Source: Callorhinchus milii
Lineage: Eukaryota
Direction: 5' to 3'
Assembly (NCBI RefSeq): GCF_018977255.1
Contig: NW_024704742.1
Span: forward strand, 42,472,001-42,536,000
DNA length: 64,000 nucleotides
Part shown: positions 2,201-63,544 of the stretch, in pieces
Numbering within the stretch: the first letter of the stretch is position 1
Layout: each line of letters begins with the position of its first letter
The notes under the pieces: generated by a model
What the model saw: the letters and a program-made list of their open reading frames with translations, nothing else
Database searches by the model: none
What the model was told of the DNA's origin: nothing
Translations under genes and position numbers: made by a program

Positions 2201-2799
2201 CCGTGAAGCATCAGCCATTCCTGGTGGTCTTAGATTACTGAATAAAAGCAGAAATTATTTCTCCATTTGTACCTCCCAGTGAGAGAAATGATTGCGTGTA
2301 TGAATTTTTCTATACCCTAAATTAAATTAAACACACTACAGTCGGAATGGGAAAAAATGGGTTGGTGACTGGGAGCAAACAGTGATTCATCATGTAATCC
2401 TAAACACTGTTGGGACAGGTTCATTACTCGCAGGATTAATATTTTACATAATACTAATAAATAATCCTTGATATAGCGCTTTACCACATATTTGAGGACT
2501 GCTGGATACTAGCTTAATACAACAAAAAATTAGTTAAACCATTATCACAGTAAGCAACCCCAAATGCCCCATTGCAGAAAGATGGACCACTGGAGGCTTC
2601 TATTGGCTTCAGGCTCAACTATTCTGCTGAAGCTGGAGGTGGAGGTCACATCCACAGGGTATATTATTGTTGACTTGCTGATTGCAATCACCTCAGATTT
2701 CACCTCTTTAACCCTCGTTCTTAATGAATTTTGAGAAACTGCTCATAGATTATTTTTAATAATAAATAGTCATCCTTGTATTTGATATAGCATGTTTAA

Positions 2800-3359
2800 C
2801 TGCTTGTCGGCCTTCCGAACTCCTCCTTCCACAGGCGGCAGATAACCCAGAACTCTGCAGCCCGTGTCTTCTCCTGCACCAAACTCCGCGACCCCATCTC
2901 CCCATTCTCACCCGACTCCACTAGCTCCCTATCCTTCAGAGGATCCAGTTCAAAATCCTTGTCCTCATCTATAAGGCCCTGCATGGCCTCGCCCCACCCT
3001 ACCTCAGCAACCTCCTAATCCCTTCCAACCCGCCCGCTCCCTCTGCTCAGCTGGCTCTGTCCTGCTCCACGTCCCCCGCCCCACCCGCCCCACCATTGGC
3101 GGAAGAGCCTTCAGTCACTCTGCCCCCAACTTCTGGAATTCCATCCCCCAATCACTCCGCCTCGCCCTCTCCTTAGCCTCCCTCAAGTCCCGCGTCAAAA
3201 TCCTCGTCTTCAACCATGCCATCTGCCACCTACCTTCCCTTCCCCTCCCTTCTCTCCCCCCTGACCCCAGCTCAGGTCTGAAATGCTGTACACTATCCAG
3301 CACCTTGGGACATCCTCCCAATGTGAAAGGCGCTATACGAATGTAATCTTGTTGTTGTT
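2800..3359 (+). mobile_element. L2 LINE 3' fragment
   Basis: Homologous to the ORF2 C-terminus at 54760-55170 ([11 protein letters not shown] motifs). Ends GTGAAAGGCGCTATACGAATGTAATC(TTG)n. Confidence 0.85.
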
Positions 3360-3451
3360 TAACATCAGAAGACTGCCTCAAAGCCCCTCACATGATATAC
3401 TGTAAAAAGTTATTATTATTATTATTAAAGTGAAGTTCCCAAAACTGAACA

Positions 3452-3825
3452 TAATAATAATACTAGCATTTGATAAAGTGCCTTATCATATATTTGTAGA
3501 CAACATGGCAGCTAATTTGTGCACAGCGATGTCCAACAAACAGCCATCAACTAAAGTACCAATCTTTATCTGGTGGCATGTTGACCAAAACTTAGGGAGA
3601 AACTACCTTCAATTAAATAATGCCATGGGATCTTTAACATGCGCCTGAACTAGGAGATAGGACCTCAGTTTAATTTCTGATGTGAAGAAAGACACCTCTG
3701 TCAATGCGGTGCTACCTTTGTACTGAGTTGGAGTGTCAGCCTAGAGTATGAGCCGTACTTGGGACTTCAACCCACAACCTTGTAACTCAGAAGTGAGAGT
3801 AATACCAACACGGCCAGGCTGACAC
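3452..3825 (-). mobile_element. Deu-domain SINE, near full length, diverged
   Basis: On the minus strand it has a tRNA-like head, the Deu core and a (TTA)n tail. Confidence 0.7.
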
Positions 3826-8799: not shown

Positions 8800-9117
8800 G
8801 GAGTCCTGTAGCTCAGTAGTTAGAGTACTCGCTTTGCAAGTGAAAGACTGGGTTCGAATCCCGGCAGGACGAAACCTTGGGCAAGTTTCCTTACTCCACA
8901 TGCCTGATAATAATCCCTCAAGATAAAAAACAATAATAAATTGGGCACTTCAATCAACGACTATTTGTGGGACACTGCTGTGCGCCGCATTTTGCACACA
9001 AATATACAGTCAATTCACTTTACAGTCTATTCTGTTAAGCGCTGTGAGACAACTAGAAGATGTGAAAAGCGCTATATCAAATTATCAAATGCAAGGATTA
9101 TTATTATTATTATTATT
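8800..9117 (+). mobile_element. Full-length tRNA-derived SINE (partial CORE-like middle, L2-related tail, (TTA)n end)
   Basis: A-box TAGCTCAGTAG and B-box GGTTCGAATCC, then CCTTGGGCAAGTTTCCTTACTCC. The tail reads GTGAAAAGCGCTATATCAAA...GG(ATT)n. Many copies occur in the window. Confidence 0.88.
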
Positions 9118-53510: not shown

Positions 53511-53877
53511 TGTCCTGCAGCGTAATGGTTAGCGAGCTCGCCTCGTATGCGAGAGGACCCAGGTTCAATTCCTGAGTGGAGCAAAACCATAGGCAAGTTT
53601 CCTTACTCCACACTCCTCTGTTTACTTAGCAGTAAGTAGGAATCCAGTTGTTAATCGATAAGCGGATCACTTTCTGGAGGTAATAATCTCTTTAAAAAAA
53701 TCCACTTAATCACTTAATTCACGACTGTTTGTGGGACGTTGATCTGGACAATTGGCTGCCACGTTTCGCACACAAAATACATGGTCAATCCACTTGACAA
53801 TATATTCTGTGAAGCGCTTTGAGGTGTCTCAACAACTTGATAAGGTGCTATATCAAATGCAAGGATTATTATTATTA
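53511..53877 (+). mobile_element. tRNA/CORE-like SINE (long form)
   Basis: tRNA-like head with B-box GGTTCAATTCC, then CCTCTGTTTACTTAGCAGTAAGTAGG and an (ATT)n tail. Confidence 0.85.
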
Positions 53878-61197: not shown

Positions 61198-61394
61198 GAC
61201 CATATTGGAGTAGAAATTGCAAGATTGCAAGAAATTGGATTATTAATTAGCAACTCCCAGGTGTGTTGCGATGCCTAGATGTTTTGCGGTCTACCCTCTG
61301 GACAGGACTTCACTGAAATCGGAACTGAAAGTGACGTGCAAGCGGAATTCCTCAGCGTTGGCCTGTTAAACATCCGGAGGCCCCCTAAATCTAC

Positions 61395-61609
61395 CTAGTC
61401 ATAGCCTGTAAGACCATTTTATCTTAAAATTTAAGATTGTGCAGAATTGTAGAAAATTCATAGCTTTAGTATTCACTTGGAAGCCACCTATCCGAGGGTC
61501 TTAAAAAACATCTTCAATCTTAAATGAATTAAATCAGAATTTAAGAATTTTCCACAATTCTGGGCAGTCTTAAATTTTAAAACAAAATGGTCTTACTGTC
61601 TAAGACTAG
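61395..61609. mobile_element. MITE-like element with ~65-bp imperfect terminal inverted repeats
   Basis: CTAGTCATAGCCTGTAAGACCATTTTATCTTAAAATTTAAG...GAAAATTC pairs with GAATTTTCC...CTTAAATTTTAAAACAAAATGGTCTTACTGTCTAAGACTAG. Related remnants lie near 18860, 27490 and 30495-30670. Confidence 0.8.
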
Positions 61610-61719
61610 ATGACATTTCATGCCTCGGGATTCGAAAGTAAGATGAGATGGTTTTTCTAAAATAAATTAGAAATCTACGCAAAATGTTTTTACGAATAAC
61701 CATTTCACTTCAATCTTTA

Positions 61720-62012
61720 CAAAATGCAGAATACTGCAGATGCTGGAAATCTGAAACAAAAACAGAAGTTACTGGGAACACTCAGCAGGTCAGGCAGCAT
61801 CTATGGAGAAAGGAAAGTGAGTCAATGTTTCGGGTCCACGACCCTTCGTCAGAACTGGGGCACGTTGGGACATGCCAGAGTTCTGATGAAGTCCCCTCCC
61901 AACATGCCCCAGTTCTGACGAAGGGTCGTGGACCTGAAACATTGACACACTTTACTTTCTCCATAGATGCTGCCTGACCTACTGAGTGTTCCCAGCGACT
62001 TCTGTTTTTGTT
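61720..62012. mobile_element. Inverted pair of Penelope-like terminal-repeat fragments with hammerhead-ribozyme motifs
   Basis: Arms 61755-61870 and 61897-62012 are near-perfect reverse complements. Each contains CTGACGA-A-GGGTC-GTG-GACC(C/T)-GAAAC. The family is assigned from recalled shark repeat sequence. Confidence 0.75.
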
Positions 62013-63544
62013 CTCTTCAATCTTTGTTCTTTTTGGGAAACTCCTGCAAATTATTCTGATCCCACAGGGGACAGATTGCTTAATGTTTCTGTGAAGAAGA
62101 ATGCCGATAGCAATTACATGAGCAGAAAGGTCCAGCATTTCACATGTGTTCACCCTCTGGCCCTTCTTGTTATATCTATATGATAGCAGCATCACCTGCA
62201 ATCCAAAACTAGGATCATGCTGTGTTGTGGATGAAAGATCATGAGTTAGGTGTGGGCATTCCTCCACATTTCTCCATTACTCATGCTGGCTGTATAATGA
62301 AGCGGGTGTTTATTATATCCAAAAACCTTTTGGAAATGGGATTCATGGGAAATATTTTCTCTGCTGATAATGAATTAGGAGACTTGTGGACCTCAGAGTT
62401 TGAAAATAACCTTATACAGTCCCCCAGCAGCCCCCTCCCTTTTTCTTTTTTAAAAGAAAATTAGATGGATACATGCAGAGTAAGGGTATTAGAGGGTACG
62501 GGTAAAGAGCAGGGAATGGGTATTAGGTTAAATAGATTCATTCGGAGAGAAATCACTGACAAAAATATGTTTCAAAAGGCTTGCTTGGTTCCGTGGAGAA
62601 TATATCTAATACTTATTGCTCTCTTTCTCATCCTACATGCCAACAACAAATAAATCTTTGTCTATTTCACGTACCACTGAGCATCGCAAAATTTAGTTAT
62701 TTGAAGGGTATTGCATTCAATTCACTGAAGATTAAGTACATTTGGAGCATAGTATGATCCTGGGAAACAAAGAACATGAAGCAATTATTTCTTCCATATT
62801 GTTACATTCTAATAAATGAAGCTATATCCATCACTACTACACATGTGTATTGAACAAAGTAATTACAAACCAGAAGATGTCAATATAAAGAAAAACGAAC
62901 ATATTCACAGGCTTGGTTATTTGTTGGATTCCTGCTGAGGTTGTACAATTTCTTTTCTGGACTATTTATGATAAGAGATTAACATTTGTGTTAACCTTTC
63001 ACTTCACCTATTGTTTCATTAAGTATCAGCTTGGCTCATTTGGTAGCACTCTTACCTTTGGGTCTGAAGGTTGTGGGGTTAGACCAATGTTGGGGATTTG
63101 GACATGCACCTCATGGTCTAGGCTGATACTCCATGGCAGTGTTGGAGGAATGCTATATTGATGGAAGTGCTGTCCTTTGGATCCTATTAAACCAAAGTCC
63201 TGTCTGTACCTTGACTTTGTTCAAGGTAATTCTACGTTGATTTATAATAAACAGTTTACTAATGGCTTTGTTTGTAAATCAGCCAGAGAGTATATTTTAA
63301 ACTTATGAACACGTGCACAATTCTTCAAATGTATTGTCAAATAGTGACCAGATCTCTTTTATTTAGGATAGCAATCTCCATTACTCAGCTCTACCTTTTC
63401 ACCTGGAATCTGTCTGCAAATATAAGCAATGACATCCCACTAGGTCTAACCTCTCCCTTCTCCAAGGTTAATTTTACTGCCAATCACCTATATTAGGCAA
63501 ATAGTCATGGGGTAGTCAGTGCTTTCTTAGAGCAAACACATTTA

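Follow-up and report, generated by a model that had tools for sequence, protein, structure and literature searches.

The fold-back in the window (the whole 64-kb stretch of Callorhinchus milii DNA that we analyzed) is best explained as one old and dead insertion of an endonuclease-encoding Penelope-like element (PLE). We put the probability of this reading at about 0.88. The insertion consists of two heavily 5'-truncated 3' ends lying head to head, of which only one carries a tail, and an 11-bp target-site duplication (TSD) encloses the whole. The hammerhead motif found on each strand is the pLTR ribozyme of the family, copied twice in opposite orientations. The fold-back is not a unit of its own; the unit is the dispersed 3' end of the PLE. 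The window feature is thus most likely an inert, ordinary product of a known retroelement class. The first-pass annotation of this DNA, which worked from the letters alone, missed that the fold-back has the standard form of a PLE insertion.

Structure of the fold-back and its flanks

A repeat finder recovered two inverted arms of 116 nt that are 94% complementary and separated by a 26-nt spacer (Table 1). Folded as RNA, these 258 nt reached -214.1 kcal/mol on the plus strand (shuffle mean -74.6; z = -28.2) and -220.0 kcal/mol on the minus strand (shuffle mean -77.3; z = -28.7), and none of 200 shuffles matched the folding energy of the fold-back. The repeat finder and the folding (z about -28) thus bear out the first-pass description of a fold-back of ~260 bp with two 116-nt arms and a 26-nt loop. 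Between the arms there are 7 differences in 116 positions, and 4 of these lie at CpG sites. The left arm corresponds to positions 321-436 of a 472-nt reference stretch from another family copy (L030). The right arm ends without the tail.

Table 1 Features of the fold-back and its flanks in the window.
Feature	Position	Strand	Basis and remarks
TSD, left copy (CTTCAATCTTT)	61708-61718		longest word common to both 48-nt boundary windows
PLE tail, 34-nt optional 3' extension	61721-61754	-	left arm only; matches the extension of other family copies
Left arm, 5'-truncated copy of the PLE family 3' end	61755-61870	-	repeat finder and family alignment
Left-arm minimal hammerhead	61820-61856	-	core and G10.1-C11.1 intact; helix I 4/4 pairs; 15.2-16.2 CG -> CA
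Junction between repeat-finder arms	61871-61896		26 nt
Junction filler, partial third copy of the family stretch CATGCC..AGTTCTGA.GAAG	61871-61891	+	17/21 identical
Right arm, 5'-truncated copy of the same 3' end, tail-less short terminus	61894-62012	+	repeat-finder arm 61897-62012; family homology from ~61894
Right-arm minimal hammerhead	61911-61947	+	core intact; 11.1 = U (G.U wobble); helix I 3/4; 15.2-16.2 CG -> CA
TSD, right copy (CTTCAATCTTT)	62015-62025		same boundary-window comparison

The two copies of the TSD are 11 nt long, a length reached by 2 of 500 shuffles of the boundary windows. With one mismatch allowed, the duplication extends to 14 nt (61705-61718 and 62012-62025). No second TSD was found around either arm of the window. 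Because a single TSD brackets the whole structure and the tail is present on one arm, the two arms most likely derive from one integration event. This speaks against the earlier proposal that the inversion came later or that the arms had been homogenised.

The junction between the arms contains a third, partial stretch of family sequence. Its 21 nt copy the segment around the 5' half of the ribozyme, and when we aligned them locally to the family unit, none of 1,000 shuffled loops reached the same score. The first-pass annotation had reported a third partial ribozyme core in the loop. The sequence is indeed there, as 61879-61891 holds AGTTCTGATGAAG, but it is a patch of the family segment and not a third ribozyme: the filler lacks both stem II and GAAA. 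The patch is probably the product of a template jump.

The facing arms could instead reflect an inverted duplication of one arm after insertion, or an assembly artefact at the inverted repeat. Among contigs from four public runs none spans the fold-back, leaving the assembly of the inverted repeat without independent confirmation. Short-read contigs break at the repeat, which draws thousands of contigs from other family copies in these runs, and a passage in PMC8557442 says that inverted PLE structures trouble assemblies. However, neither a collapse nor a mis-join is expected to produce a tail on one arm, an asymmetric 21-nt patch, the seven arm differences (with their four CpG sites) and an outer TSD, and the same form recurs at other loci. 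We therefore consider a duplication or an artefact very unlikely. Separately, a 246-nt contig from a run that we guess to be RNA covers 61983-62228.

The repeat family and its other fold-backs

We searched the same genome (991.5 Mb in 1,762 contigs) with the right arm. This gave 3,022 first-look candidates, and the 42 matches that were scored are 93-100% identical to the query. We fetched 29 other loci, where the focal match consists of one arm alone and its 5' end varies between copies. Placed in register, the copies have between ~5 and >500 nt of homology upstream of the arm, and this wide variation is a pattern of 5' truncation. The 3' ends fall into two classes, which either stop at ...CTTCTGTTTTTGTT or continue for 34 more nt. 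The 34-nt tail follows ...CTGTTTTTGTT in 16-17 of the 29 other focal copies (~57%).

These copies bear directly on whether the fold-back could be a MITE or another fold-back DNA transposon in which a hammerhead-like word arose by chance. A palindrome of 258 bp that is nearly perfect and flanked by a duplication fits that description. However, copies elsewhere consist of one arm whose 5' end varies and are not whole fold-backs with fixed ends, and other members of the family continue into a frame for reverse transcriptase (RT) and endonuclease (EN). The single-arm copies elsewhere in the genome refute the MITE reading, to which we attach practically no credence. The neighbouring fold-back at 61385-61620 is MITE-like, with whole-unit copies in both orientations at 67-75% identity (1,773 candidates).

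The longest copies (L003, L012 and L030) extend upstream into coding sequence. In L003, one of the copies with arms 95-96% identical to the window arm, a Cys-rich motif is followed by ...VVYCIRCS / CGLYIGETKRRLGDRFAEHL..., which we read as the remnant of a GIY-YIG-type endonuclease. Pfam recognized GIY-YIG in this remnant at E = 0.23 only. The endonuclease piece itself had 1,147 first-look candidates in the genome. In L030, the arm begins 284 nt past the stop of the ORF. Another copy, L044, retains a 470-aa open frame comprising the C-terminal half of an RT (with YIDD) and the endonuclease, followed by the same 3' region with motif and tail. Pfam gave no match to this frame at E <= 0.1. The frame has 28 homologues, which are longer (best E = 6e-119, 48% identity, 90% coverage), and the two that were scanned contain RVT_1 and GIY-YIG. 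The domain assignment therefore rests on the homologues, because Pfam was silent on the 470-aa frame and weak on L003.

PMC8557442 gives the combination of an RT and a GIY-YIG endonuclease at its C-terminus as the defining architecture of endonuclease-encoding (EN+) PLEs. The family also has a CX5CX2C motif upstream of GIY-YIG, similar to the linker motif ascribed to Neptune and Nematis PLEs in the same source. By homology and predicted domain content, the arm family is an endonuclease-encoding PLE. The link to Penelope that the first-pass annotation had drawn thereby gained its coding counterpart, in the endonuclease remnant of L003, the RT/EN frame of L044 and the RVT_1 and GIY-YIG domains of the homologues. 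As a candidate N-terminus of the element we also considered an ATG-initiated frame that opens shortly downstream of the cleavage site and extends across the tail. It was set aside, as the N-termini of the homologues look unlike it by eye.

Fold-backs are not restricted to the window. A genome-wide pattern search found eight loci (the window included) with two intact facing cores <=200 nt apart, and the control search found none. Fold-backs other than that of the window were seen at L008, L017 and L018 (3 of the 29 other focal loci) and at L044, L045 and L069-L073. L017, L018, L044 and L045 were drawn from loci fetched for the family analysis, and the pattern search supplied a second group. The same genome contains at least nine fold-backs of the family beyond the window. 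L071-L073 resemble paralogues that stem from a single event. Of the 11 fold-backs examined, 6 have convincing TSDs: the window (11 nt), L017 (9 nt), L018 (14 nt), L044 (12 nt), L045 (8 nt, exact) and L069 (11 nt). In the remaining five (L008 and L070-L073), a TSD is absent or weak. Among the 10 full fold-backs, 8 carry the tail on a single arm, and none has it on both. As for the others, neither arm of L070 reaches the 3' end, and in L072 an insertion breaks the arm that extends furthest into the tail.

L017, L018, L044, L045 and L069 have one layout in common: a single TSD on the outside, a one-sided tail, and arms that abut within 1-31 nt. This recurrence is relevant to the possibility that the window holds two independent PLE insertions, in which a second 5'-truncated copy landed in the opposite orientation exactly where the 5' end of an older one lay. 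PLE endonucleases reportedly favour PLE sequence as a target, and PMC6765202 describes a tendency of PLEs to integrate within or beside existing copies. Each window arm also has 6-7 mismatches relative to L030, which is about as far as it is from its partner arm (7/116). However, one TSD brackets the composite and neither arm has its own, and the identical layout at the five other loci would be hard to obtain by chance nesting. We regard two separate insertions as unlikely and one integration event as the most likely origin of both arms.

The hammerhead motif and its decay

The plus-strand motif reads AGTT-CTGACGA-A-GGGTC-GTG-GACCT-GAAA-CATT-GACA. The minus-strand motif, read from 61856 to 61820, is the same except for GACCC and GACT. 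We scanned both strands of the window with a descriptor (CTGANGA, 0-1 extra nt, a stem II of 4-8 bp closed by a loop of 3-8 nt, then GAAA and NNTH, with a minimum of 3 of 4 helix I pairs). It matched exactly two sites, which are the two arm motifs. In 100 first-order Markov resamples of the window, the mean was 0.01 sites and the maximum was 1, with no resample containing 2. The strings that the first-pass annotation had quoted for each strand are therefore present where it placed them, and the descriptor finds only these two.

The Rfam models, which the first-pass annotation had suggested running, gave no hammerhead match. At the gathering score, the only matches in the whole window are two tRNA-like sites. 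At E <= 10, the interval 61600-62150 has 16 matches, none to a hammerhead. The best of these are to generic miRNA-hairpin models (40-65 bits, all below gathering), and we set the matches to miRNA families aside as generic long-hairpin matches. The missing hammerhead match is what we would expect of a motif that has no helix III hairpin.

The window motif is supported as a minimal type I hammerhead of the PLE kind. The minimal hammerhead ribozymes (min-HHRs) of PLEs are characterized by G10.1-C11.1, a helix I of 4-5 bp and a palindromic 15.2-16.2 segment without a helix III hairpin (PMC4209133). The motif shares with the min-HHRs described by Cervera & de la Pena 2014 (PMC4209133) the type I CUGANGA...GAAA core, the one unpaired nucleotide between A9 and G10.1, the G10.1-C11.1 pair, the 4-bp helix I and the absence of a helix III hairpin. 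In its family state it also shares the ACGU palindrome through which dimers would form, and, as in that study, there are thousands of mostly solitary copies from truncated elements. That study also found min-HHRs in pairs, one on each strand, with 100-700 bp between them. The motif differs in its stem II, which has 5 bp with a 3-nt loop compared with 7-8 bp in Schistosoma (PMC4209133). The window copy further differs from the published min-HHRs in that CpG decay has removed the palindrome. Even in dimeric form, self-cleavage of published PLE min-HHRs is poor (PMC4209133).

The commonest state in the family is AGUU-CUGACGA-A-GGGUC-GUG-GACCC-GAAA-CGUU-GACU (for example in L006, L011, L021 and L024). 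We counted exact copies of a 23-mer spanning 11.1 to helix I across the genome, with control patterns at 0. C at 11.1 with CG at 15.2-16.2 is present in 776 copies, T with CG in 230, C with CA in 257, and T with CA in 84. The ancestral family motif GAAACGUU is therefore present in 1,006 of the 1,347 exact copies, and 341 copies have CA instead. This confirms GAAACGTT, which the first-pass annotation had inferred as the family state. Likewise, C occupies 11.1 in 1,033 of the 1,347 copies. The doubly decayed T/CA state was observed 84 times with 79.5 expected, indicating that the two decays are independent. We had considered a spreading non-palindromic 'ACAU subfamily', as T at 11.1 and CA seemed to be linked among the 29 best matches. 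The link disappears in the genome-wide counts; it was seen in the sample because those matches had been chosen by their likeness to the query. In contigs of other family copies from run X1 that cover the left arm, 78% of the depth has C at 61826 (the CG state).

Both window arms have the two catalytic boxes. CTGANGA is found in 25 of the 29 focal copies and GAAA in all 29, while 31 other, older copies have them in 17 and 16 cases, respectively. The extra nucleotide is A in both window arms, in 29/29 focal copies and in 28/31 of the other copies. Around diverged endonuclease matches, the strict descriptor matched 3 times across 17 loci (L046-L062), and BLAST shows the same family motif there in a decayed form. 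Within the family, the motif varies mostly by CpG transitions, which in older copies also affect G8 and G12, and judging from these changes the variation looks like neutral decay. Only one stem II pair is doubly changed (L058). Variation of this kind offers no informative covariation test within the family. Of the family consensus that the first-pass annotation had looked to, the conserved CTGANGA/GAAA core thus stands, and stem covariation adds nothing informative.

A comparison between lineages is more informative. The genome also contains a second PLE lineage, which forms tandem units of ~2,995 bp with 825-aa open frames (RVT_1, E = 9e-12). Just upstream of the ORF, this lineage carries UUCAC-CUGAGGA-C-GGCUGC-(7 nt)-GUGGCC-GAAA-CGUC-GUGAG. 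The core, an extra nucleotide (C in this lineage), G10.1-C11.1 and ACGU are kept relative to the arm family, whereas helices I and II are wholly different. A variant of the second lineage has a U.G -> U-A change. The apparent covariation, drawn from two lineages only, supports the helices without being conclusive. Among further candidate lineages, the descriptor matched neither L080 nor L082, and L081 repeats the second lineage.

With a palindromic ACGU at 15.2-16.2 and no helix III hairpin, the family state implies dimerization through ACGU/ACGU pairing. In a model of the published domain-swapped dimer, the CpG-intact family motif forms all four pairs of helix III, and the two trans helices I are complete (8/8). 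The ACAU of the window would form 2/4 helix III pairs in a self-dimer and 3/4 with a CpG-intact partner. We used only pair counts here, as the lowest-energy dimers obtained when 37-nt units were cofolded differ from the hammerhead dimer. The U at 11.1 of the right arm is a G.U wobble resulting from CpG decay; the left arm and the family majority keep G10.1-C11.1. In helix I of the right arm, GACA forms 3/4 pairs with AGUU.

Each transcript strand would carry a single sense motif that has no tandem partner and is paired to its complement in the 116-bp stem. Self-cleavage at the window locus appears unlikely on these pairing models, and the ribozyme here is most likely inactive, because helix III is reduced to 2/4 pairs, the right arm has G10.1.U11.1 and a weaker helix I, and the motif is sequestered in the 116-bp duplex. 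Today the locus could plausibly do no more than form a long hairpin, provided that it is transcribed. The first-pass annotation had raised a KCNIP4 intron as a possible setting. A PROSITE-style EF-hand loop pattern had no match in the six frames of the window, which may be wholly intronic or belong to another gene.

Such a hairpin could in principle be an exapted structured RNA under selection, either as a miRNA-like precursor or ADAR substrate or as a working pair of ribozymes. Its stability is very high, and generic miRNA-precursor models match it at 40-65 bits. However, all of the Rfam scores lie below gathering, the arms have drifted 6% apart with CpG-type decay within the ribozyme core region, helix III of the dimer is lost, and sister copies number in the thousands. 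Exaptation is, in our view, highly improbable, and a decayed PLE insertion accounts for the hairpin.

The states of the two motifs also bear on the origin of the arms. The arms share only one non-majority state (CATT). CA is present in about a quarter of the copies, so two independent decays would give the shared state with a chance of ~6%, compared with ~25% for one CA-bearing source. As the shared CA is likelier under one CA-bearing source, a common source RNA for both arms is plausible and mildly favoured.

Proposed integration by two-strand priming

The structure suggests how the insertion may have formed. The PLE protein would have cut the two target strands ~11 bp apart. Both 3'-OH ends would then have primed reverse transcription from two internal start sites, which define the tail. 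Both cDNAs would have halted after ~120-150 nt and been joined with the 21-nt template-jump patch.

Several of these steps have counterparts in a purified system. The Anolis PLE protein PAc cleaves and extends both strands in vitro (Frangieh et al. 2024, PMC11167929), and the two internal sites from which its reverse transcription begins mark the bounds of the tail. Two-strand priming would correspond to the head-to-head copies seen here and the two start sites to the two classes of 3' ends. In that study the strands are reported not to differ in their start sites, whereas here the tail is on exactly one arm in every scorable fold-back.

The form of the insertion is also familiar from EN+ PLEs in genomes. 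The account in PMC8557442 has PLE insertions as 5'-truncated, often with an adjacent inverted 5'-truncated copy and with a tail of 30-40 bp that is often at one end only. In the rotifer example from PMC3846280, an inverted pLTR completes the insert, which is flanked by a TSD of 9 bp, and one of these inverted pLTRs carries a tail of 31 bp. The inverted copy and the one-end tail are thus common to the window and to the EN+ insertions described in these parts of Arkhipova et al. 2013 (PMC3846280) and Craig et al. 2021 (PMC8557442). The TSDs reported there are 8-10 bp, compared with 11 bp in the window. The window insertion further differs from the EN+ inserts presented in these passages in that there is no ORF or full pLTR between the ends, and copies of ~120-150 nt form a bare hairpin. 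Hammerheads in PLE-related repeats are likewise a feature of animal non-LTR retrozymes, for which bioRxiv 10.64898/2026.07.22.740005 lists one cartilaginous fish among other vertebrates. The retrozymes described there are head-to-tail tandem units, whereas the window has an inverted pair of truncated ends.

Inverted segments within one TSD also arise by twin priming of L1, in which the second nicked strand primes reverse transcription as well. The L1 segments are different, adjacent parts of one RNA, whereas both arms of the window are the same 3' end.

The strictly one-sided tail in bare fold-backs is a modestly new angle. If each arm chose its 3' end independently at the family frequency of ~57% tails, about half of the fold-backs should have a single tail. 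For seven independent events that are all one-sided, the probability under independent choice is ~0.007. One-sided tails may, tentatively, mark two-strand target-primed reverse transcription in vivo in which the RT start sites differ between the strands and are coupled, a possibility that we regard as less likely than not.

For the window locus itself, the finding has little significance: this is a decayed fragment, and the two-strand ribozyme is a by-product of PLE insertion. It does suggest a rule for annotation. In PLE-rich genomes, short perfect hairpins with CUGANGA...GAAA on both strands are best read as inverted PLE ends and should not be taken for new structured RNAs or paired ribozymes. 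The family is more interesting than the locus, with ~1,350 exact 23-nt copies and a clear CpG-intact ancestor, as is the second lineage with its intact ORFs and covarying ribozyme. The bare fold-backs could be mined to study PLE integration, and the one-sided-tail rule, if true, would constrain its mechanism.

Rearranged and apparently duplicated copies of the family

We examined several copies of the Penelope-like element (PLE) family whose 3' ends form the hammerhead-bearing fold-back of the window. Three fold-backs of this family on one contig (L071-L073) have near-identical junction sequences. From this likeness, they look like paralogues of one insertion, spread by segmental duplication. 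Because four identical matches to the 23-mer, an exact word from the motif region, lie on one strand of contig C24 at a spacing of ~20 kb, we suggest a tandem segmental duplication there, with a 20-kb period and carrying one PLE copy.

Locus L008 holds a truncated copy whose 5' end carries an inverted repeat of only ~64 nt, derived from the upstream part of the family. The inverted piece lacks the 3' end. This junction is snap-back-like and differs in kind from the full fold-backs, which are two inverted 3' ends placed head to head. The open frame in L043, another copy, is largely an H/T/R/E/Q-rich low-complexity repeat (...HTHTERDTH...), to which the PLE endonuclease end is joined in frame. 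It probably derives from a microsatellite-like insert within a PLE copy.

Coordinates of the features discussed (L, loci of the same genome; G000:C, contig and position)
Feature	Location	Details
Second fold-back	window 61385-61620	arms 61395-61462 and 61542-61609, 68 nt each, 85% complementary
tRNA-like match	window 8802-8872	51.3 bits
tRNA-like match	window 53519-53575	32.0 bits
L008 inverted piece	1352-1415
L008 truncated copy	1424-1617
Family fold-backs L071-L073	G000:C9:989130, 1135256, 1449168
Identical 23-mer matches	G000:C24:5303621, 5323022, 5342924, 5363768	n=4, one strand
L043 open frame	2395-3807	470 aa
L063, second PLE lineage	G000:C1063:1-9500

Other elements in the window

A second fold-back sits directly upstream of the PLE fold-back. 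The genome search returned 1,773 first-look candidates, and the copies matched the whole unit in both orientations at 67-75% identity. By this sequence behaviour, it resembles an old MITE-like element. The two tRNA-like matches are probably the heads of tRNA-derived SINEs; a comparable tRNA-like word, cctgtagctcagtggttagagcac, adjoins or falls within PLE copies at loci L012 and L072.

A second PLE lineage

Small unplaced contigs (L063, L064, L065, and L081) carry a second PLE lineage in head-to-tail arrays with a period of ~2,995 bp. Its 825-aa open frames match RVT_1 (E = 9e-12), with no GIY-YIG match at E <= 0.1. Inverted pairs are also present in L064 and L065. Each unit has a CAG-rich microsatellite within its spacer and its own minimal hammerhead motif directly upstream of the ORF.
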